A DNA stretch of 57,090 nucleotides, filler included, from Circinaria calcarea (lineage: Eukaryota), in NCBI GenBank assembly GCA_051942165.1. It is 5 parts of 5 records of this genome, joined end to end, with 100 filler letters (N's around TTAATTAATTAA, not from the genome) between each part and the next. Parts side by side here need not be neighbours in the genome. Positions count along the whole stretch, not along the records: positions 1 to 11,393 come from JAVECS010000688.1; 4 more parts are not named here. One strand, given 5' to 3'. The notes under the pieces were generated by a model, which saw only the letters and a program-made list of their open reading frames with translations, ran no database searches and was not told where the DNA came from. The translations under genes and the position numbers were made by a program. Below, piece after piece: positions 7,701 to 22,831 of the stretch; within the stretch, counting starts at the first letter, position 1; each line of letters opens with the position of its first letter.

Positions 7701-8207
7701 CTTCCCTGCCAATAACTCTTGCAGGACGCATTACAACATTCCTGCACCACATCAAGTTCTCTTCGTGGTAACCCCTGTCATGTTTTTTCTACTTTTAACT
7801 CGTCAACTGTTTTTAGCAATTGATCACACGACCTCCTGTGAGATTGTTGGGAAGCGAGTGGTTTGATGGTACTTCCGCCCACTATAGATACAAGTCCCGG
7901 GGTAATGTGTGTCAGGAGCTTGAACATCATTGGGCCCGCAGTGCAAAGATGTCATTACTATTAGGCTAGTCATCAGCCTAGAATTCTGGCTTCCTCAGGC
8001 AGCTGCAATTCTACCCGATACATCTCGATGTAGACAACTCCCTACCATGGTTGATTTGGTTCTTGTGGGATACACTTTATCGAATAAAGGATCTAGGCAT
8101 GGATTCAATGCGGGGAACAGCTTTGGCTACTATTCGAGGACACCATCAGTCCAGCAAAACAGAAAGCTGAAGTAATTCGAACTATTACTCCACGAGGGGA
8201 AACTGTC

Positions 8208-8215
8208 TATATAAA
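8208..8215 (+). promoter_or_regulatory. TATA box of the repeat-precursor gene
   Basis: TATATAAA about 160 nt upstream of ATG 8377, followed by a CT-rich tract typical of fungal promoters. Confidence 0.6.
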
Positions 8216-8376
8216 CCGCCTGCTTTCCCCATTTCTCGTTCTTCCCATCGTGCCTTCTGTCCGACTCCCTCACGTTCTTCGATACTCTACTGTTCTCTCA
8301 AGGACGCTATTCCTAATCGTCATATCATTTACCACCACCTGTATTTACCCATCTTAACCAACCAATTACCGCAAAG

Positions 8377-9795
8377 ATGCGTTTCACCAAGGTTGCTGCC
8401 GTTGCGGCTATTATGTCCATGAGCGTCTCTGCTCTCCCGGCTGCTGCTCCTAACGCCAATGCCGATGTGGCCGAGGGTCCCGTTTTAGCATTGACCGAGC
8501 GTAATCTTGCGCAACTCAACGGCAGATCACCCACAGGCAAAGGGAGCCACAAAAGCCACAAAAGCCGCAAAAGCAAAAGCAGCAAAAGTAGTGGCCGTCA
8601 CCATTACTACCGTCGTATTCGGTCTTTGAGTCCTACTGGGAAAGCTTTGAGACGTTCCGTCTGGAAGTACTACAAGGTTCGCAGTCCCGCTGCCGAACCA
8701 ACTGGATACGATACCGTCAGCTACAAGAGCGGCAAGAGCGGCAAGAGTGGAAAGAGTGGAAAGAGTGGAAAGAGTGGAAAGAGTGGGCAGAGTGGAAAGA
8801 GTGGAAAGAGTGGGCAGAGTGGAAAGAGTGGAAAGAGCGGCAAGCACTATGTGCGAAGAGGTTTGGCCACCCGAGATGCTGAGGCTGAAGCTGAACCAAC
8901 TGGATACGACACCATCAGCCACAAGAGCTACAAGAGCGACAAGAGTGACAAGAGTAACAAGAGTGACAACAGCCACAAGAGCAACAAGAGTGGCAATAGC
9001 AGCAAGAGTGGCAATAGCAGCAAGAGTGGCAAGAGCAACAAGAGTGGCAAGAGCAACAAGAGTGGCAAGCACTATGTACGACGAGGTTTGGCCACCCGAG
9101 ATGCTAAGGCTGAAGCTGAACCAACTGGATATGATACCATCAGTCACAAGAGCGGCAAGAGTGGCAAGAGCGACAAGAGCAACAAGAGCAACAAGAGTAA
9201 CAAGAGTGACAAGAGCCATAAGAGCAACAGTAGCAACAAGAGTGGCAATAGCAGCAAGAGTGGTAAGAGCAACAAGAGTGGCAAGAGTAACAAGAGTGGC
9301 AAGCACTATGTACGACGAAGTTTGGCCACCCGAGATTCTAAGGCTGAAGCTGAACCAACTGGATATGACACCATCAGTCACAAGAGCGGCAAGAGCGGCA
9401 AGAGCGACAAGAGTGACAAGAGCCATAAGAGCAACAGTAGCAACAATAGCCACAAGAGCAACAAGAGCAACAATAGTGGCAAGCACTATGTACGACGAAG
9501 TTTGGCCACCCGAGATGCTGAAGCTGAACCTAGCGGAAGCAACAATGTACTCCGATGGCTCGGCTTGGCTCCACGCGACGCTGAGGCCGAAGCTACTGTG
9601 ACATATCCCGACTACGGCCATGGAGCCGGAAACGGTTCCCAGAAGAGCGGGAAGAGTGGGAAGAGCGGGAAGTCTCAAGGGAGCGGGAAATCTCATGGGT
9701 CTGGGAAGTCTCATGGATCTGGGAAGTCTGGGAAGTCTCATGGGTCTGGGAAGTCTGGGAAGTCTGGGAAATATGCCAAGAGATGGGCTGCTTAG
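8377..9795 (+). CDS. Secreted Kex2-processed repeat protein (KEP-type precursor) releasing Lys/Ser-rich peptides
   Basis: Intronless 472-aa ORF; signal-peptide-like MRFTKVAAVAAIMSMSVSA; repeated linker KHYV-RR-(G/S)LATR-DAEAEAEP-TGYDT; cores of (K-S-X)n. Confidence 0.88.
   Translation: MRFTKVAAVAAIMSMSVSALPAAAPNANADVAEGPVLALTERNLAQLNGRSPTGKGSHKSHKSRKSKSSKSSGRHHYYRRIRSLSPTGKALRRSVWKYYKVRSPAAEPTGYDTVSYKSGKSGKSGKSGKSGKSGKSGQSGKSGKSGQSGKSGKSGKHYVRRGLATRDAEAEAEPTGYDTISHKSYKSDKSDKSNKSDNSHKSNKSGNSSKSGNSSKSGKSNKSGKSNKSGKHYVRRGLATRDAKAEAEPTGYDTISHKSGKSGKSDKSNKSNKSNKSDKSHKSNSSNKSGNSSKSGKSNKSGKSNKSGKHYVRRSLATRDSKAEAEPTGYDTISHKSGKSGKSDKSDKSHKSNSSNNSHKSNKSNNSGKHYVRRSLATRDAEAEPSGSNNVLRWLGLAPRDAEAEATVTYPDYGHGAGNGSQKSGKSGKSGKSQGSGKSHGSGKSHGSGKSGKSHGSGKSGKSGKYAKRWAA
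8695..9525 (+). repeat. Four nested tandem units (198, 225, 234, 174 bp) built from 9-bp AAGAGYNNN sub-repeats
   Basis: Unit starts (GAACC..) at 8695, 8893, 9118, 9352; next unit start at 9526; all lengths are multiples of 3. Confidence 0.92.
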
Positions 9796-10440
9796 ATGGC
9801 GGATTGGAGTGGAGGAGATGATAGTCGGGGATGCAACTAAGGAAAATTGATATGAGTCCTTTTTTACTTGAAAAAGGCTTTTTTTATCCACTGATATTTG
9901 TTAGTATCTTTTTGATTTTGAAAAAATACTGTCAAGGGACCCCTTTTTTGAAATTGAAACTTGCAGTTCGCTCGGGGCTTTTTTCCTTCTACTGGCTGGG
10001 TCAGACTGTCCTTACCAACTCCCTCGCATGAGCTTTAGCTAGCCGCTTTTCCATAGTCTAATCCTTCCTTCCCCAATGGGCCTCTCTCCCAATCCATTCA
10101 TCGACGTAGTATTATTACCCGCCTCTGCTTTTTTTTTTTTTGGAACATCTTCACTACCCGGCTCCTAGGCACTTTGGTTGGGGATCTTCGTCAGGGACAA
10201 ATTTACAATGTTTACCATATGCCCCGAGTTAACCTCGCGACTAGACTACAAGTATACACGCCGAAAAAGTACCACTTGGCCGGATCTTAGACTCTTTCCC
10301 CCCCCCCCCTTGTCTTTTTCCCTGTCTTTTCCCCTTCGAGAAACACTTTTCAAATCATGGAATTCCGGTGATCTGATCCTCTATAGATAATTGTGTCTCC
10401 ACACAAAACCTAAACCAGACCCCTGCTCCCGATTCCCAAC

Positions 10441-10541: not shown

Positions 10542-11393
10542 CACGAAGCCTCTTCGTTACACCTTTCCGGGGGGACACTGGGCCATAGACATAACCCTAA
10601 CTAAAATGGGGGTATTGGAAATCTTTTTTAGCAAATAGCTGCTATAGCTATATTTGTAGTCGTAGCTGTGAAAAATTCCGGGCGGGTAGGTTGGTTAGTT
10701 AACTCCCTCACTTCACTCCACGCATATTTCCTAGAAATGGGAGGGAGGGAGTTATGTATTTTATCTACCCCTCTGCTTTTCTGTCCTTTTTTCCTTTTCG
10801 CCCTCTGTCCCTTTTTCTTCAATTTTCTAATTTTTATTTTCTCTTGGAAGAAGAGCCTCGCCTACGTCGCTACGGGGGTACGGTGGCATAGATATAGGTA
10901 ATTGCAAGTTCGAATCGGAGTTTTTTTTTTTGGGCAAATGCAAAAACTGGATCGATTAGCAAAAACAGGAGTTTATTTATTTTGTTAGTTTTAACCATGG
11001 GCCGAAAGTTGCATGTACGTGGTATGTATATGAGTATTCCGGGGCCGGGGGGAAGGGGGGAAGGAAACGGCCCGTTCTACGGTACCATAAGTCATTCGCG
11101 TTTTGATCGTTTCGTTTCGTTTCGTTTTTTTTTTGGGATTCGGTCATTCGGAACCCGGATTGGGGGCCGGTGGGTACACTTACCCAAGTCCTTACATGAG
11201 AGTTCCGCGGTCCCCCAACAACCAATAAAAAAAAAAGGGGCAGGGGCGATTGAAATAGTTGGCCAAATTTGCCGAGATCCCCCACTTCCTTTTCCTTTTC
11301 CTTCCCCCGAATCCTTGTTTTGGTTGCGGGCTGGAAAAAGCCGGGAATAAAAAAAAACAAATTAAAACTTTGGGAACAAGAAAATCTCATCCC

Positions 11394-11493
11394 NNNNNNN
11401 NNNNNNNNNNNNNNNNNNNNNNNNNNNNNNNNNNNNNTTAATTAATTAANNNNNNNNNNNNNNNNNNNNNNNNNNNNNNNNNNNNNNNNNNNN
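11394..11493. other. Artificial contig spacer
   Basis: 44 N + TTAATTAATTAA (stops in all frames) + 44 N. Confidence 0.98.
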
Positions 11494-12017
11494 GTCCATT
11501 GCACAGCTTCCTGATCAACGGTCTTGCCGTTCGATAGTTCTGCTTCGACGCAAGCGAGCTGCCTGCCTGTGGTCGCATCTGTGATCAAGATCTTCACCAG
11601 TCCGTCGAGATCTGGGACACTAAAGGCAACGCCAGGGATTTGACTGACAACATCCGGAGAGAACTGCGAGTTGGAATTGATGACAATTTGACCAGGATTC
11701 ATAGGGCAAAGGGAGCTCAGCTCTGCGTTACCACAAGGATCTATGGTTTGGTTGAAAGCAGTGTAACCATAGGCGATGGCTTGTATATTGGCAATAATAT
11801 TCCCTCTGATGGTTGAGACGCCATTGATATTGTATGTGAGCGTGCCGTTGTCGGGTGTGAATACAACATCGAACAATGTCGCCGTGAACCCCGAATTATC
11901 TTGACAAGCGTTCAGCGAATTCGATTCGATTAGCCGCGCAGCTGTTGCCAGTGCGGAGAGGATAAGGATGATGGCGGAGCGAAGAGGGAGCGAGTTGACC
12001 GTTGATAGTAGTCGCAT
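11494..12017 (-). CDS. FLC/TRP-like membrane protein, N-terminal ML-like (TRP_N) domain; 3' truncated by contig end
   Basis: Signal peptide, then IESNSLNACQDNSGFTATLFDVVFTPDN..AYGY..DPC..LCPM..IPGVAFSVPDLDG..LACVEAELSNGKTVDQ, typical of the fungal flavin-carrier/TRP-like family. Confidence 0.85.
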
Positions 12018-13488
12018 CTTCGTCACCGCTCCTGAAAGACTGGAAGCTTATGTAGTCGCCTTCACCGAACTGACTGGCGGAAATGACAGATCGTATGGAG
12101 TAATGCGACTTGTTCGACTCGTGCCTCTCCTACTGATGCACACTTTCTCCAGAACGATGAGTCGGTTTCATGCAATGCAGCCGACAGTTCCGAGAAGTAT
12201 GAATGAGGATGTAGAGAATGGTGGTCGCTCGGCCAATGAGGCAAATCAAGGAAATCAAGTGAGCGACAACCCAAGTTAGGGTACTTTTAGTGCATTGACA
12301 GGCAGTAGTACTTCTTTGTAGCTGTGCGACGAGCGAGAGGCGGCAAGATTTGGTCTTGAGCGTCGTAACAATAGATGGAATGAAACAGCGATAGTGGTGG
12401 AGAGAGAGAGAGAGGTTTGATGGCGAGAGTTGTGATGGTGGTGATGTTGTGGGAGATGGAGAGTGAGACTGCAATGAATGACAGACAATTTCCTCCGTAT
12501 TCGAACGAGTGGTCAGGGGAGACCATCCATATGGTAGCGGAAAGGGTATTACTTTCTACCGAAAATGGCGTGGGGTCAGCCGCGCACGCCGCGTAATGCT
12601 CCGGACTCTAATAAATTCATATGATGATTTGTGTACATTCTTGATTTCGTCCCGGATGTCGGTACTGCTTACCCTTAAAGCCGTTGACAACGGTATTGGC
12701 TGTGATGCAGAGACACATTGTGGATCTTGTTACATACGGTAGAAGGTATCACTCCTACTTCCAAAAGCACGCCCTTGAAGAAAAGTTGCCACCTTGTAGT
12801 CCAATCAGAATCACTTCCTATGGGAGTCCAAGAAGCATAGCCCCAGCTGAGAGTTTAGTCGACTGGGCGGCATTTCACATGGATAATCAACTTGGCCCTT
12901 GGCCCAGTCCATTCCGGCACTCGACATTCTATTTCTTTGATGCCTTGGTTAAGGGTGCGGTTCTCAGCGTTGGGAGTCAAAGCGGTCTTTAAATTGGCTC
13001 AACGATGCAGGAACCCGCAGTGCGTACTAGGGGCCGACAGCGGCTCGATATCTTCCTATTACTACGGAGTATCGTACGCCTACACAGTGCTGCACCCTCG
13101 CGCAGACGACATGAGACACATTCGGAATGTATGAGATCGTCAATGTTAGCCTCGTTTTGCGGTGTGGTACCCAGGTACTTGGTACAGTATCACTGGTGGA
13201 AAATGAAATATTGATGCCGGATTTGACGGAAGTTACCGTATATTGCTATTTGCTATCTAGTCTTCACGAGTAGATCGTTTTATACTCTCACAGACACACT
13301 CTTGTAGAGCAATAGGGGAATAACTTGTCGTTCATCAATGGCATGTGCATAGTAGGAGTATAACTAGCTTACTTCTATCAGGTTAGCTTATCCGCTGAGA
13401 TACCCCGCTAGTACAAACTCTAATACTTTTGCTGTGAACAAATTCAATCCGGTTCTATCTAACAAGAAAATTTAGTGACGGACCGATC

Positions 13489-15544: not shown

Positions 15545-17322
15545 ACTTTCTTTTTGCGTGGTCGTTGGTAGATGGACTGTGACTGCCAATACGTCTTCTC
15601 TATCTACGGTTGTGGCATAGCGCGGCGTTGGTGGTAGTGGTCAACAGGCAGGCCTTGGGAAGGCAGTCATAGACTTTCGAGGGTATTGCCAACCATTTGC
15701 TCGGTCACCTCCTGAGCATAACTCCGTGCTTCGATCTGCTCTAGGATTCCACCTACTGAGTGACGCTGGCATTTAGTAGTTCCAAAACCGGCATCGATTT
15801 AGTTGGTAAGCACCAGATTGATTCCTGGTCATATACGCGACATCCAGTTGAAGAAACACTTACCGCCGGTCTTTTCCGTTTCGCGCTTCCGCTTGGGCAT
15901 AATGTCTTGCTGTGGGTTTTCGAGTCGGAAGAAGTGGTGGACAGCTGTATATGTAGCTGCCAATGGGATGGATGGATGGCAAGGGCGCTAACGTCAAAAG
16001 GTTTGGATGGACAAATAAACATTTGGTGGCCGTGGTAAGTGTTTTATATGGCACGCTATTCTACAAAGGTGTATATCATGTCATCCGTAGCCGTCGCTTC
16101 TTACACTAGGGGGCACTACCAATGGAACACTTTACACCGTCCTGGTCAGGTACCTGGACCATTAGTAGGGGTTTCGGTCACCGTAAAAGCATAGTCGTGG
16201 TTTGATAGACTTACAAAGCCGTCGCGTCAGGCCTTTGACTTTTCTGCTTACTGCGTAGTAAGAGTCTGTCGGGAGATGAAAGTCTGATTGCAACTGTCTC
16301 TAGCAGGACAATGTTGCATTCTCGAAACGAGCTACTCCATAACAGCGGAGAAAGTTGATGGCCGTCACAGCACAAGTCGTTGATTGGTGACTTGGGATTG
16401 TGTACAGGCCGACTAGGGAAGGTAGAGAGCATCATCGCCAGGCGTTTGCTGCAGATCAGTTGGTGGATCGATGTCGGGGAGGGAGTACCAAAAGGCCGTA
16501 TTGGTAAAAGCAGCGTATCGTCAAAAGGCGCCAGTGACGGTCATGCACATTGCCTGCCAACCACAACCTGGTACAGGCGCTGCTGGCCGCAAATCCCCGC
16601 CACTTTCACGTCGCCGTTGTACAACTGCAGTGGGAAGTGGTCTAGTGAGGTCCCTGCCGCTCCGCTGAGGGAGAGAGCTCGAACCTTGGCTGCGTTTGTT
16701 GTGTTTCCGTAGTCCGAGTGAACTAAAACTAGGATGCCACCCTCAGGAAGCTTTGGCACTATTATATCGTCTTCTTGTTTCTGGAGAAACCGCTTCTTGG
16801 CCGTTCATCTTTTTTTTCGGGGATAGGACTGAAGGTGACGCTTCTCATCAGTGTCTGGTCCTAGCTGTACGCACCGTTGCCGTCGCAGTTGGTGCATTGT
16901 AGTTACGGTCGGAAGGCTGAGGGCGGGGAGGAAGTCGCTCCTACTCCGTACCGAATGCACCATCACTGCCTCTGCGCACAAGGCCACTCATGATCGTCAC
17001 CCTCACTCCGTCCATACCATCGTCTGCATTGACCAGCAGTAACTGGCGTTTACGCTGGTGCTACTAGCTCTTTGCAGTTCTAAGTTTCTGATTATCTCTG
17101 TGACAGCAGCCGTTCGTTATCCAAGTCAAAATCATCCGCCGATGTTATCCTAGAAGTTCGGTGTCTCAATTCACTGTACAGCTCCATTTACTTATTCAAG
17201 TATTTCAGCAGCAGCGGCAGCCACGCCTGATCTACCACCGGTTTGCGCAACTCTCGTCGGAACATCTGCTAGTGCAGCCCAACACTGCGATTCCATGATA
17301 CCCCAGCCTCGAGCTTAACGCA

Positions 17323-20300
17323 ATGGGTGTTGATACCCGCAAACCTCCATTGCCCGCCCCGACAGAGTCTCCAACCCTTCAGACGTCCGGGGAGGATTTG
17401 GCGGTTACAGACCTTGCCACGAATATTTCTCGGCGGACCGACCACACATCCTACTCGATTCCTGAAGACGGTAGCCCAATAACCATAACAACGAACAAAA
17501 AGAAAGATCATAAACATAGGGATCAGGAGAGCACTCTAACTCGAGCATCGCACCAGTCGCAGACATCTTTATTGATCGAGTACTTTGAGGGTGGCAAAGG
17601 TCCGAACGTTCACTCGAGACCAAGCGTCCGAGTCAAAGTTACACCATCTTCGGCGCGCAAAGCGAAGGGCGCCAAGGATCATATTCAGATTACAGAAGGC
17701 GGCGGCCACCGTAAACCATCATACACGAGGCGCATATCACTGGGACCGACCGGCGCTACAGAGAAGATTGTTGAAAGTGACCAGAGAAGTATAAGCTCAT
17801 ACACCTCGGCTGCAGAGGACTCCAGCTTGTCTGGAAGGCGTCCACCTGTGGAGATCGAAGTGATGCACAAAGATCAAGGGAGCGATTTATCTGGAGCCAG
17901 CATACCCACAGAGCTCAATTACATGACGCATAACACATTCAATACCTCTGACATATCATCGATGCCACCAGACAGTATGCTCGAAGACAATGGCGCTAAC
18001 CTAACTCCACGGCGTAATCGAAGCCGGAGCTTGACACGAGAGGAGATGGTTATCACAAATGATACTCTCAAGACTCCATCGAGACGACGAAGCCGGAGTT
18101 TGAGTCGAGAGCGCATTGCGCAGAAAGTAATAGAGAAGCTGGGAAAAGAGCCTCGACATATTAGTGGTGGGGGGAAACAAAGGCATGCAAGTCATAGTCG
18201 AAGTGGAAGTATCTCCAAGGAGCAACTTGTCGAGACGGTCCAGTCGCCAAAACGGCGATTGGAAAAGTCTGGTAGACATCACCGTACGGATGAACCACCG
18301 AGTGGCGCTGAATCCAGCATCGTGACTGGTTCGCAACTATCAGATCGCAGAAAATCTGGTGATCAATATTCATTCCGTTCAGGAACATCCAAATCTTCGT
18401 TGAATAATCCCAAGCTGCTTGAGACTGTTGAGGATGCTATACGACGCTTGATTCTCCCGGAACTGACAGCTTTGAAGCATGAGCAGAAAACCCAGCAGAA
18501 TCGCTCCAAATTCGAGCGGGATAGGAGGGACTCTTTTGCCTCCGGCAGTAGTGTTTCGCGTGAGGAACTCACTCGGAGGGTTTCGAAGCATTCAAGTGCT
18601 CCGGATATATCGGGGAAGCCAAAGGTGGTGCTCAACCGTGACGACAATAGTCCGGGGATTATACTCTCTGGGAATTCGGTTAAAGGGAGAAAAGATCAAA
18701 GGCGTGACCGAGATTACGATTCTCCTTCGGAAAGAAATTACCATCGTGGGCCATCGGAGGAGACTGTCATTCGCGACGAGGGTAAACTCTCACGAAAGCG
18801 TAGTAAGGATAGTCATCGGTTGAGAGATGCAGCAGCTGGAGCCATAGCAGGAGGCATCCTAACTCACGCTGCCTTGAAGCACCATGACTCTCGTTCAAGT
18901 GTGGATAGGCGCGAGAGGAGGAAGAAGAGGAGCAAGAGTCATAGTCGAAGCGCAAGTCTCGCCGAGAGCACCGAAGAGATATTCCACAAGCACGAGGTTC
19001 CCCTTATGCCAATGCGGAGCGAGATCAATGATTCGGAGTTAACAAGAGACTCAATCTTATCCGAACGAACATCAACCCCAACTTCAGAGCGTCACAAGGC
19101 CGAGATCCGTGAAGTCGCTCGAGGATCTCCACGGGAGGTATTGTCACCGGCATCAATAACCCCTACACGATCACCTGGCGGTCTACAGCATGGCTTTGGG
19201 ACACATCATAGTAATCTCTCTCGTGGCGATGTTAATCTGCATAGCCCTGGGAGTGAAAGGAGCTTCCAAGACGACGTTCATCATTCTTACGCTGAAGAAG
19301 CCGCTCTTGTCGGTGCGGCGGCCGGTGTTGATGCTTTTGCCCCTGACCTTATGCGCAGTGGCCATGATCGAAAGGAGAGCCAACCATACAGGCATCACAC
19401 ACACGGGCGTGGCTTAAGCCCGATTCAGAGTGTTGCTAGCTTTGAAGAAGAAAGCGAACCGCCCAATCGAGATTCCATCCGGATCCATAGCGCTGGATCT
19501 TTGTCTTCTGCTGGCCAGCATCACAGACAGAACTCGGCGGTATCAATTGACACCCTTTCCTCGGCTGCCAGTACCAGCTTCGCTCGCTCCAAGCGACCTC
19601 AAGGTATTAATTTAGAAGATAGGAAAGATATCCTCGAGCAACACAATCTTAGAGACCCTGAACCTCGACATGAAGAGTATTCCAAAGACCCTGCCGTGAA
19701 TAAGTGGTATGATCAACAACACGAAGAGAATGAACGCTATCGTGATTCGATGGGGGACAGCAGCTACAGAGACTCGACTGTCGATGTCAGGCATATGACT
19801 AACTATAAGGACGACAGTATGGATGCGCCATATCTAGACAAAGTTACTACTACCCAACAGATCCGCGGCATGGGTGCCAATGCTGAGTATATACATACAC
19901 CAATCGCCGTGGAATCCGCAGTGGCTTCCTTACACGATCCATCCGTACTTGACGTTCATTCCACCCTATCCGGACGTTCTAAGCTCGGGGAACTCTCATA
20001 TCTAGATTCGCCGAACGATGAGCAGCAAGATGACACGGAGAACCGGGACAGCTTTCATTATGGCATTGAAAACGAAAAGCATGGAAGTCCATTGAGACAG
20101 CACTATGAAGCAGATCTCCAGAAATCTCGATCACTATCGGCCGAGTCACACGCTAAGCGGTCTTCAGCAGACGTGAAAGAACAAGGTACCCCGCAAGCTC
20201 CTAGGGAACATGAAGAACACATACCCATGGGAGCCAGTGGCTTGCCTGTTGCAGACGATCCTTTGCCTGAGATCGGCCACTTCCAACATTCTGAATCTGA

Positions 20301-22743
20301 TATTAGTACCAACCCCTCAATCATTCAAGGACCCATTGGTGGCGTGCCCCACGACAACCGTGACCACTGGCCTTACCAACCCACGCCACCATTGTCCAAG
20401 GGCGATTTACTGCAACGATCTAATAACACCAGCGCTCATGAGAGTCTCAAAGCTGCTGCTGCGAATATGCTCAGCGCCGCAGCTGGAGCCGGGGCTGGCG
20501 CAGCGTACGCCAGGAGGGATCGTGAGAAGCAGACCTCTCAGGAGAAGGATCTTGCTCTAAACGCAGACAGTCGTTCGCCAATGTTGAACCAAGAGTACGA
20601 GTATGAGCGGAACATAAACCATGACTTTGGGCCGATCCGAGATACTTATATGAGTGGCCAATCAATACCTACTCCTCCCGGGGCAAAGGATGAGGGATAT
20701 ATATCTGCCGCCAATCCGCGATCCGCAGGTGCCTTGACTCCTGATTACAGGGCGAAAGGTGTTGTAATATTGGGAGAGGACCATCTAAGGGATGTGGATG
20801 ATCCGATGGCAGGAGATGATCCATTTGTCGTTGGGAAAACGCATACCAGACATTTAAGCGGTAACTCGCATGGGATGGCATCCCCACTGTATGATAGTGC
20901 TACAGGCCGAGGCATTGATCGAATCCAGTCCAAGGACATAGTCGCGTTAATGGACCATGTAGGATATGAGCAAGATGCTGTACTGGATACGCGCTAACGA
21001 TTTATAGCTCACTGTCCGAGATGCTCAACGGAATGCTCGGGACACGGAGATTTTAGTGACGTTGGTTAGGAGCGCCGCCGAGATGCGTAATTCTTTCGAG
21101 GATTTAAAGAGATTCATTGCAGAGCAAGATGACATGATGATGGATACGACTGGCAAGCAGCATGATCGTACCGTGCAGAAGATCATTGGAGGCCCGCGTC
21201 CACAGCCACTGGGGACTCCACGTATACCACGTCGTGTCTCAACAGAAGATGATACGATGGACGATATGCCTGCCAAGAGGCGCAATGTTTTCAGACGAGC
21301 CCTGAAAGGCTTAGGTGGTGGACGTAACTCCAATGACCTTGGACGTATTGAGGATATGCTTGTCCAGCTTCTCGGCGACATGGAAGGGTTGAAGGCTGGT
21401 CAGGACATCAGGCCAAATGCTGGCATGACTCATCGCGATAGCTACCAATCTTACGATGATGCACGTGAGGTAGCGCCGGAAGGGTATGAACCCGAAGGAC
21501 AAGCAGGTACATCATCAACAGGGAACCAATCTGGATCTTTGTCACTTGCCACGTCTCGACATAGCAATGCAGGTGTGAGAGGGTTTGATGGCCGTCGAGC
21601 GTCTCAGAATAGGGTCAGTACGGTTCTAGAAGGAGACGAAGAGCTTGATGTCCATGAGCAAAACTTGGTACCACGACAATTCGAGAACAATGGGCAGCTC
21701 CTAACTCCAACGCAAGAGGTTCCCCGTGGCGGCTCTGTACCCTTGGACACCCCGCCAACGGTAAACATTGCGACAGGTGCTCAGAGCAATGAACACACGC
21801 CAAGGACCATCACCGACAAGAGCCGTAAACACAAATCCAGCAGTTCTTCATTCTTTCCCAAGATATCTCGATGGTCTAAAACCACTGCATCTTCGGCCCA
21901 TGATAATGAAAACGTGAGGAACAGCGGACGTCGAGATCGACCTCTCTCGGAAGCGTCTCGCTCAGGCTCGGACCTCAATTATAACACTAACGAACATTAC
22001 GATCCACAGGGTGATGACCGGCTACGTTCGAACGCGTCCCTCGCCGATGATCGCCCGCCATCCCCTTTGATTCCTTCGCATATTTCAGAAAAGCCGGCGT
22101 ACCAAGCACACCGTGATTCTCTCAACCTTCAGCACCCTCAGCCAAGGCAAGGGCCAACCGGTCGCTACCAAAACCATCTCGAGTCTCAAGCACAAACCTT
22201 TGGCTCTCCCATCTCACCCACATCTGATCAGTGGGGTTCAAACCCGATCCTCTCTCGGTTCGCGTCTGGCCCTGGTAATCGTCATAGCGGAGGAGCGGGA
22301 AATCTGTCTCCCATCTCCGACGCAGGCTTTTCGCAAGCATCCGCAGCAGAACAGAGCCATGCACCGGTTCGACCTCCCAAAATCAGGGACGATGGGCCAT
22401 TGATACCCGTTCGGCCGGCAAAAATTGCCGTAGGCGAAGGCAAACCTACCTTTGCGGAAAGATCAGCTGCTGCAAACGAAGAACAGAGGTACAGTAACGG
22501 TACTTTGGGATATGAACAGGTATGTATCTCTTCATCTCCCATCCGATGCAACTTACTTATTCCAGGCAGGCGAACGGTTCACCTCGTAATGGCCAAGTGC
22601 CCCAGCGCAAACCGACGGGGCCTAGACCGATCTCTACATCTGGGAACTTCAGTCCCGGTAAGGCGCCGGACCCGATCAAGCGGACCAGGTACCGAGGAAG
22701 CCCGAACCACGTTGAGGGTTCGAAGGAGGATGTCACCTGTTAG
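17323..22743 (+). CDS. Large (~1770 aa) mostly disordered fungal protein of unknown function, 3 exons
   Basis: Long ORFs joined by GT-AG introns 20959-21007 and 22520-22569; ordered islands SLLIEYFEGGK, LLETVEDAIRRLILPEL, DIVALMDHLTVRDAQRNARDTEILVTLVRSAAEMR. Confidence 0.85.
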
Positions 22744-22831
22744 AAAGTGTGCTATGGTGACATGATGTGTAATCTTTGCGAATCCAAAAGGGGCTGTTTA
22801 GGATGCTCGGGGGAGGGGGAGGGGGATATGG

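Follow-up and report, generated by a model that had tools for sequence, protein, structure and literature searches.

The question raised by the locus studied here is whether the repetitive open reading frame (ORF) at positions 8377..9795 (+) of a 57,090-nucleotide stretch of Circinaria calcarea DNA (assembly GCA_051942165.1; the window) encodes a secreted polyprotein which is cut into peptides by enzymes of the Kex2, Kex1 and Ste13 types, as an initial annotation had proposed. The sequence features behind the proposal were confirmed, and the interpretation put on them is partly supported. Judged from the sequences compared, the product appears best described as a KEX2-processed repeat protein (KEP) of a new type that is apparently restricted to lichens, with long, disordered, non-amphipathic polycations as its predicted amplified products. 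We consider it reasonably probable that the gene encodes a secreted, disordered KEP pre-pro-polyprotein of a lichen-restricted family which releases K-S-X polycations. All coordinates are positions on the 57-kb window, and the standard genetic code was used for the ORF listing.

The motifs on which the proposal had been built were found in place, namely LTER (residues 39-42), LNGR (47-50), four LATR (163-166, 238-241, 316-319 and 376-379), LAPR (397-400) and the dibasic sites, six RR and one KR. The dipeptide runs SP, SPAAEP, DAEAEAEP, DAKAEAEP, DAEAEP and DAEAEA were likewise present, although the third LATR precedes DS-KA-EA-EP, whose first dipeptide is off-code. An Arg followed by (X[AP])2 occurred at five sites; 20,000 shuffles of the mature protein averaged 0.25 such sites and never had more than 3. 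The pattern is beyond chance. Four tandem copies of a Lys/Ser-rich (K/S) unit and a divergent further one (U5) had been claimed and were found, but a sixth unit at residues 53-78 with an HHYY-RR end had been missed. The parts of the gene are as follows, with the net charges and isoelectric points (pI) predicted for the peptides by in-silico digest.

8208..8215 (+), TATATAAA box, read in the sequence 162 nucleotides 5' of the ATG
8377..9795 (+), whole ORF (protein P0001), 472 amino acids without interruption; an intron is not required, and homologs can be aligned over the entire length, Met1 to C-terminus
8377..8433 (+), predicted signal peptide, residues 1-19, MRFTKVAAVAAIMSMSVSA followed by LP; heuristic assignment from a basic n-region, a hydrophobic core and V-S-A before the cut
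8434..8526 (+), pro-region, residues 20-50, with LP-AA-AP-NA-NA dipeptides, an acidic stretch and the conserved ALTERNLAQLNGR
8527..8616 (+), unit U0, residues 51-80: SP, a 26-residue K/S/H peptide TGKGSHKS...GRHHYY, and RR; +8, pI 10.8
8617..8682 (+), most conserved island, residues 81-102: IRSLSPTGKAL-RR-SVWKYYKV-R
8683..8859 (+), unit U1, residues 103-161: SP-AA-EP, a 51-residue TGYDTVSY-(KSG)n-KHYV, and RR; +11, pI 10.3
8860..8874 (+), spacer GLATR, residues 162-166, with P4 Leu, P2 Thr and P1 Arg
8875..9084 (+), unit U2, residues 167-236: DA-EA-EA-EP, a 60-residue peptide with six N-x-S/T sequons, and RR; +10, pI 10.1
9085..9099 (+), spacer GLATR, residues 237-241
9100..9318 (+), unit U3, residues 242-314: DA-KA-EA-EP, a 63-residue peptide with eight N-x-S/T sequons, and RR; +13, pI 10.3
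9319..9333 (+), spacer SLATR, residues 315-319
9334..9498 (+), unit U4, residues 320-374: DS-KA-EA-EP (first dipeptide off-code), a 45-residue peptide (53 residues if untrimmed), and RR
9499..9576 (+), spacer SLATR, DA-EA-EP and the conserved island SGSNNVLRWLGLAPR, residues 375-400
9577..9783 (+), unit U5, residues 401-469: DA-EA-EA, a 61-residue TVTYPDYGHG...SGKSGKYA, and KR; +10, pI 10.3
9784..9795 (+), C-terminal WAA tail and stop codon

The gene had been called an orphan, but HMMER, profile, cluster and metagenome searches placed it in a small family of lichen-type fungi, with about eight relatives of 214 to at least 338 amino acids and two to at least five units. A word-indexed search gave one relative, P0002 (281 amino acids, 46% identity across 214 aligned positions). 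In an exhaustive HMMER search of 1.84 billion representatives, 93 matches were obtained at E <= 0.001, six of them true relatives (P0006, P0007, P0002, P0008, P0010 and P0012; E 3.6e-40 to 6e-12) matching outside the K-S-G run. The best stretch of the other 87 lay within that run (residues ~68-232), and the three of these that were examined are unrelated Gly-X-Y or low-complexity proteins. The full-length P0097 (294 amino acids) was added by cluster look-up, P0098 (225 amino acids) by a profile search with seven matches, and L001-L005 by a metagenome scan in which five of 141 pattern matches were confirmed. A hypothetical protein from a Loekoesia sp. lichen metagenome-assembled genome (Teloschistaceae, Lecanoromycetes) is the sole member with a name; the family has so far apparently been seen only in lichen-type (Lecanoromycete) fungi.

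Full-length members share a common order of parts. The leader is followed by ALTxRNLA-L-x-x-R and an initial K/S unit closed by [YH]Y-(R/K)R, then by the island IRSxSPxxKAL(K/R)R-SVWKY(Y/F)KVR and one to at least four K/S units, each after an X-[AP] run and ending G-x-[HY]-[HY]-x-RR; the last parts are one island (V/L)-x-x-WL(G/D)L-x-x-R and a final K/S unit ending RR, KR or YR plus two to three residues. Unit number ranges from two in P0008 and P0098 to at least five in L002, and the unit heads are aromatic or acidic (TGYD, AYDWD, DYGYPPP, DYYPPPPPP). The leader layout of the window protein (R2 and K5 in the n-region, a 14-residue hydrophobic core with an 11-residue Kyte-Doolittle mean of up to 2.03, V-S-A before L20) is repeated in five full-length relatives (P0002, P0097, P0098, P0008 and P0007). 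Invariant among seven sequences are L39, T40, R42, N43 and L47 of the pro-region and K97, Y98, K100, R102 and S103 at the first island, KY[YF]KVRS being invariant in the family alignment, and WL[GD]Lxx-R occurs once per protein in all eight family proteins. Conservation is strongest in these two islands, SVWKY(Y/F)KVR (8617-8682) and WL(G/D)LxxR (9532-9576), each of which lies between basic sites. Counterparts of U0 terminate YY-KR or HY-RR, and the C-termini of relatives read RR-WVA, RR-LA, RRR-LA or YR-FAA.

The processing code was followed through the family by a grammar scan of eight proteins covering three classes of monobasic site, KYxK(V/I)R, RR-spacer-[RHP] and WLxLxxR. Of 33 such sites (32 distinct), 32 had one or more X-[AP] dipeptides in phase directly behind them; the run length at the distinct sites was 0 in one, 1 in one, 2 in seven, 3 in twenty, 4 in two and 5 in one, so that 30 of the 32 carried at least two. 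The runs vary in letters and length (DAEAEAEP, SAVPDATPEP, NAKAAP, EPEPNA, DADAVA, SADADA, EAQP, NAKPSP) at constant phase. RR-spacer sites directly before a K/S unit were Arg-terminated in all 11 cases; the scan pattern missed two spacer sites, one S-terminated (L005) and one Q-terminated (P0098). Twenty-four of the 26 dibasic sites listed as closing K/S-rich stretches are RR or KR at true unit ends, and Tyr, His or Trp stands within P6-P3 at 25 of the 26. In the window protein, whose linkers read ...HYV-RR-xLATR-(X-Ala/X-Pro)n, the dipeptide runs start after the monobasic Arg of xLATR, five residues past RR (RR-GLAT-R, then DA-EA-EA-EP). The extended Kex2 motif given in the accessible part of Outram et al. 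2021 (PMC8528282) has Arg at P1, Lys > Arg, Thr, Pro, Glu, Ile at P2 and Leu or an aliphatic residue at P4; LATR, LAPR and LTER fit it. The processing interpretation thus appears well supported by comparative evidence.

A close relative of the gene points in the same direction. Sampled 31-mers of 8200-9900 matched four biocrust metatranscriptome runs of one study and one DNA run. Contigs were obtained from three RNA runs (28, 6 and 14, respectively). Nearly all share 90-95% identity with the window; they reach from 8286 to 9665 and fill 21, 14 and 19 of 30 bins, respectively. The contig match starts at 8286, and loose ends resemble 8270-8286. No contig came from the DNA run, which speaks neither for nor against. 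The claim made here is limited to the occurrence of a near relative of the gene in RNA libraries. Counted by codon, the listed differences between relative and window comprise 11 synonymous and 14 nonsynonymous changes. All five amino-acid changes within dipeptide runs leave the code intact or mend it: P104A exchanges Pro for Ala, E171K, E173D and K322E fall on X positions, and S321A (TCT>GCT at 9337) repairs the sole off-code dipeptide of the window protein. Both indels of the relative, +9 nucleotides behind 8543 and +3 behind 9539, are in frame.

Several points weigh against the proposed processing. The excess of Ala or Pro in the six residues after a site, 86 times at +2/+4/+6 versus 7 times at +1/+3/+5, speaks for processing, but the count is no probability because the sites descend from common ancestors. 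The RR-spacer site before the WLGL island ends in Arg in just four of eight proteins, otherwise in H, P, S or Q, and the X-[AP] run stays there nonetheless, so that such a run can persist without a basic site; the loss of Arg would count against a universal second cut at this place. KVR (P4 Tyr, P2 Val) and LNGR (P2 Gly) fit the preferences in the available text of PMC8528282 poorly, and one window linker, DS-KA-EA-EP, is off-code. The most conserved residues sit in the short non-K/S islands rather than in the presumed products. Unlike those of alpha-factor, the dipeptides do not stand behind a dibasic site, and a second, monobasic cut is needed. Kex2 is less efficient at monobasic cuts. The RNA support consists of assembled contigs of a 90-95% identical relative from three runs of one study; RNA-library contigs alone do not prove transcription, nor can contig depth rank genes. 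Every cleavage step, secretion and function of the window protein are inferred. The proposed disorder is consistent with AlphaFold2, which gave a mean predicted local distance difference test score (pLDDT) of 43.7, a predicted template modelling score of 0.15, no residue with pLDDT >= 70 and no secondary structure, but the family alignment behind this model was shallow at seven rows. Finally, the reading frame of relative L001:3001-4083 (+), on a metagenome contig of 68 kb, is interrupted by an in-frame stop at codon 42, a position at which every other member has the Arg of LTARNL. The remaining frame with its four units is intact, and the stop may reflect recent pseudogene formation, a point error or variation between strains.

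Some further features of the metagenomic relatives were observed. L001 carries a run of eight K-S-N repeats, and in a synteny comparison with the window its gene alone matched, the flanks giving only short weak pieces. The partial relative L002:2-1015 (+) has long Tyr/Pro unit heads (TDYYPPPPPPQNPEPYYPPPAGS) of extensin- or mussel-like character; the poly-Pro is absent from the window copy. L003 and L004, independently assembled contigs of ~1.25 kb with a P0002-type gene, start 2-3 nucleotides apart and ~95 nucleotides 5' of the ATG, a pattern that would be compatible with a defined start of transcription. The ~1-kb metagenome contigs L002-L005 showed no poly(A) tails.

Could the frame be merely a by-product of a 9-nucleotide minisatellite, with no gene at all? 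Tandem Repeats Finder reported a 234-nucleotide period at 8833-9482 (2.8 copies, 88% matches) made of 9-nucleotide sub-repeats, and two more frames are open across the repeat, 8527..9900 (-) with 457 and 8651..9601 (+) with 316 amino acids. Neither of these overlapping frames has support as a gene, and both are explained as by-products of the 9-nucleotide periodicity, because the leader and the non-repetitive, homolog-bearing N-terminus of 110 amino acids occur only in the + frame from 8377. The homologs of these 110 residues at E down to 3.6e-40, the relative's indels in multiples of three, the TATA box upstream and the RNA-library contigs across the gene also speak for a gene. We give a mere minisatellite hardly any probability; the RNA-library contigs and HMMER homologs have effectively refuted it. 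The gene seems to be alone of its kind in the window, since tblastn of residues 1-110 returned the self match only, other matches having E >= 0.17. U1-U4 are four tandem copies of the middle unit, and linker copies J1 and J2 differ by five synonymous and one nonsynonymous change in 30 codons. The mature chain contains 22% Ser, 16% Lys, 13% Gly and no Cys, at a mean hydropathy of -1.49.

The KEP-like build claimed for the protein agrees with the published computational definition, a signal peptide plus at least three repeats of 8-100 amino acids between KR, KK, RK or RR as given in the accessible part of Umemura 2020 (PMC7329392). The RR-to-RR segments 162-236, 237-314 and 315-374 are 75, 78 and 60 amino acids long and mutually similar, and a signal peptide was predicted heuristically. 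As the same portion of that survey counts 838 KEP types and 2560 singletons, a new type is expected in principle; motif sizes of 3-352 amino acids in the portion of Le Marquer 2019 at hand mean that unit length alone is not unprecedented. The same portion describes STE13 signatures in Ascomycota as largely limited to alpha-pheromone precursors and makes no mention of lichens. Lichen fungi of this group were absent from the searchable strain tables of both surveys. The supplements of Umemura 2020 (accessions, no sequences; possibly partial) gave no hit for Xanthoria, Caloplaca, Gyalolechia, Cladonia or 'Lecanoromycetes', and 89,120 characters of those of Le Marquer 2019, possibly partial as well, none for KSGKSGK, KSNKS, Xanthoria or Cladonia. 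[quoted passage not shown] The notion of an undescribed class therefore holds in that no family description was found in the literature searched; a new type within the known, very diverse KEP class is the preferred wording, because so many KEP types and singletons are already on record.

The alpha-factor-type grammar needs a similar qualification. Like KEPs and yeast alpha-factor, the protein has a signal peptide, a pro-region, tandem units between dibasic sites, STE13-type X-Ala/X-Pro runs ahead of the units and a unit number varying between relatives, and the Kex2/Kex1/Ste13-type code is real and conserved in the relatives. The layout, however, is not that of alpha-factor, because RR and a separate monobasic hxxR bracket a five-residue spacer: each linker has two cleavage sites, RR and hxxR five residues on, with the dipeptides after the monobasic one, and all four internal RR precede G/S-L-A-T-R rather than dipeptides. 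Nor is there a sequence relationship, and the units are low-complexity polycations of 26-63 amino acids compared with conserved peptides of 9-24. In a Pfam scan of the window protein (E up to 1), Collagen and a MoeA_C match below threshold were the only hits; MF_alpha and MF_alpha_N were absent. A collagen triple helix (PF01391) was rejected: the hit of 29.8 bits (cut-off 27.2) is limited to residues 119-155, and Gly at every third position reaches a best fraction of 0.82 in U1, 0.27-0.33 in U2-U4 and 0.52 in U5, with N, D, H or S otherwise, also in relatives. That all 11 X positions of U1 are Gly explains this match as spurious and compositional. No match was found in a PDB sequence search of the window protein at E <= 0.01, and the best ESM Atlas values, 0.80 for the whole protein and 0.81 for residues 1-112, were under lead level.

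On the proposed mechanism, the signal peptide would be taken off after residue 19, and a Golgi kexin would cut after each unit-closing aromatic-x-RR/KR and again after the monobasic hxxR (xLATR, KVR, LAPR) ahead of the next unit. A Kex1-type carboxypeptidase would then trim the basic residues and a Ste13-type dipeptidyl aminopeptidase strip one to five X-Ala/X-Pro dipeptides, leaving six K-S-X peptides, tetra- or pentapeptide spacers and three short conserved peptides. An in-silico digest by these rules (leader taken off, chain cut behind RR/KR and hxxR/KVR, basic C-terminal residues and leading dipeptides removed) predicted peptides of 26 (U0), 51 (U1), 60 (U2), 63 (U3), 45 (U4) and 61 (U5) amino acids, with net charges of +8, +11, +10 and +13 for U0-U3 and +10 for U5; the +4 of U4 was computed for the untrimmed 53-residue form, in which DS blocks trimming. 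The K/S peptides have a predicted pI of about 9.5-10.8, a Tyr/acidic head and a His/Tyr tail. They are 0-5% hydrophobic, with maximal helical hydrophobic moments of 0.19-0.38. Lysines are spaced by three in 38 of 52 intervals, and X of K-S-X, always Gly in U1, is G, N, D, H or S in the other units. The predicted by-products are the GLAT(R)/SLAT(R) spacers and the short conserved peptides IRSLSPTGKAL, SVWKYYKV and SGSNNVLRWLGLAP. As had been claimed, the predicted products are unlike pheromones, dikaritins or candidalysin, and also unlike repellents. U1-U5 contain 0, 6, 8, 4 and 1 N-x-S/T sequons, respectively, and N-glycosylation of the peptides is possible and would alter their properties. 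Along 8875-9498, N-K-S and N-S-S sequons recur in U2-U4, and U1 has none.

Once released, the K-S-X peptides might act by bulk electrostatics on polyanionic surfaces, for which the matrix of the thallus or of the extracellular space, the walls of partner cells and grains of mineral are candidates. We infer this from the free variation of body length and X at constant charge density and lysine spacing (i, i+3), which, together with the conserved aromatic ends, favours anionic-surface binding over receptor signalling; a role as sequence-specific ligands appears less likely. Given processing, surface or matrix binding is our leading but tentative candidate. An antimicrobial action of the polycations is a weaker possibility under the same premise, desiccation protection is rather improbable, and some other function ranks between these two.

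The antimicrobial action is the main functional rival, and as an account of the locus we regard it as unlikely but worth serious consideration. The same processing would yield permeabilising polycations comparable to histatins, protamine or polylysine, directed against bacteria or rival fungi or making the photobiont leak carbohydrate. Net charges of +8 to +13, a pI of about 10, one to four His per peptide, the secreted architecture and the relative found in RNA libraries of biocrust communities would suit such a role, and the accessible part of PMC9769878 describes action on the biotic environment as the general proposal for KEP peptides. The low hydrophobicity and moment of the window peptides, however, set them apart from amphipathic membrane-active peptides; moreover, Asp is common at X in U2-U4, which reduces charge density, and the N-K-S sequons could carry glycans. 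It is also conceivable, if improbable, that the K/S runs are mere hydrophilic spacers or carriers and that SVWKYYKV, IRSLSPTGKAL and ...NVLRWLGLAP are the actives, hormone-like signals for which the gathering of invariant columns in the islands (K97, Y98, K100, R102, S103; WL-L--R), the basic sites flanking each island and the view of KEPs with a STE13 signature as candidate peptide hormones, expressed in the accessible part of Le Marquer 2019, would speak. Against this, the islands are single-copy while the K/S units are amplified (two to at least five per protein), a sign that selection has acted on the latter as the product, the dibasic site in V-R-R-WLGL is not conserved (LR, RK, RH), and the in-phase X-[AP] trimming runs precede K/S units.

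An equally doubtful alternative dispenses with the peptides altogether and sees an uncut or once-cut, disordered and heavily glycosylated cationic wall or matrix protein, whose RR/X-Ala linkers serve another purpose. The absence of a fold in AlphaFold2, the 22% Ser of the mature chain and 19 N-x-S/T sequons in U2-U5 would be in line with such a protein. Yet the phase of X-[AP] and its position after Arg are kept while the letters drift and the aromatic-x-RR unit ends are invariant, which is hard to explain without proteolysis, and the window protein has no GPI-type hydrophobic C-terminus and no Cys. A processed polyprotein is the preferred reading.

The nearest likeness found for this polyprotein in composition and layout appears to be the silaffin precursor Sil1p of the diatom Cylindrotheca fusiformis, an analogy and not kinship. 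As described in the accessible part of a review (PMC4557024), Sil1p has a leader, a non-repeat N-terminal domain and basic Lys/Ser units with KxxK, which are freed by removal of RRIL/RRNL. The window protein resembles it in its signal peptide, its N-terminal non-repeat domain and its basic Lys/Ser/Gly/Tyr-rich units with KxxK, and the RR-x-L element recurs as RRGL/RRSL at all four internal linkers. The sequences are unrelated and from different kingdoms, silaffin units are shorter, and by the same partial account silaffin activity needs polyamine-modified lysines and phosphoserines. We entertain, as a speculative possibility, that the peptides are a fungal counterpart of silaffins or mussel-type adhesives, flexible polycations with Tyr caps at both ends which would glue hyphae to minerals, matrix and photobiont walls, with oxidase cross-linking possible via the terminal Tyr; the Tyr/Pro-rich heads DYGYPPP and DYYPPPPPP of relatives are cited for it. 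Rep1 of Ustilago maydis, according to the available text of PMC3133707, is likewise a secreted pre-pro-protein, cut into 11 long peptides that serve as surface material and not as ligands, and many long peptides are predicted here too. Repellents are amphipathic and form amyloid fibrils, and Rep1 has no STE13 signature (Le Marquer 2019); the window peptides, with a hydrophobic fraction of 0.00-0.05 and moments of 0.19-0.38, carry the signature. With the K2PP effectors (LxxR), as the accessible literature presents them, the protein shares the extended Kex2 motif with Leu or an aliphatic residue at P4 and a non-basic P2. Those effectors shed one N-terminal pro-domain from a folded protein, whereas the window protein is foldless in AlphaFold2 and has the motif at every unit.

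KEPs are common in fungal genomes, and a role is known for almost none beyond pheromones, toxins, candidalysin and repellents. The family provides a clean natural test of the Kex2/Kex1/Ste13 grammar, as the X-Ala/Pro phase and the aromatic-x-RR ends are kept and the rest drifts. Its two-site linker (RR plus hxxR) would be misread by catalogues that use dibasic sites alone. The apparent lichen restriction and the biocrust relative make it a candidate for contributing to the make-up of the hydrophilic extracellular matrix of lichens, hyphal adhesion to substrate and photobiont or control of the thallus microbiome. Were the adhesive reading true, lichen thalli and biocrusts would contain a structural material so far overlooked, produced by the machinery that processes pheromones. 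The predicted peptides are easy to synthesise and test.

The genomic surroundings were surveyed by Pfam on 33 long stop-to-stop ORFs picked from 77 listed across the window, a selection in which short exons could be missed. The assigned ORFs are of housekeeping type: DNAJC9, ML-like TRP_N, HAS1/DDX18 DEAD helicase, PALP/PLP enzyme, prenyltransferase alpha subunit, GT8, F-box/LRR, Efg1 and MIOS. The helicase exon shares 92% identity with a protein of a Circinaria calcarea lichen metagenome-assembled genome, its closest match, and 85-88% with proteins of many other Lecanoromycetes as well as of some Leotiomycetes; an origin of the window from a lichen-forming Lecanoromycete is accordingly likely. 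As none of the 33 carries DUF3328/UstYa, a tyrosinase or a methyltransferase, a dikaritin-type RiPP cluster with its tailoring enzymes is not supported. Assembly gaps, seen as runs of N (X in translation) at ~10977-11441 and immediately upstream of 12047, lie on both sides of the ML-like TRP_N gene (11442-12047, -), not far from the polyprotein gene. At 17299-22765 (+), two open frames of 1232 and 585 amino acids, without a Pfam match, have a Ser/Arg/Asp-rich disordered composition.

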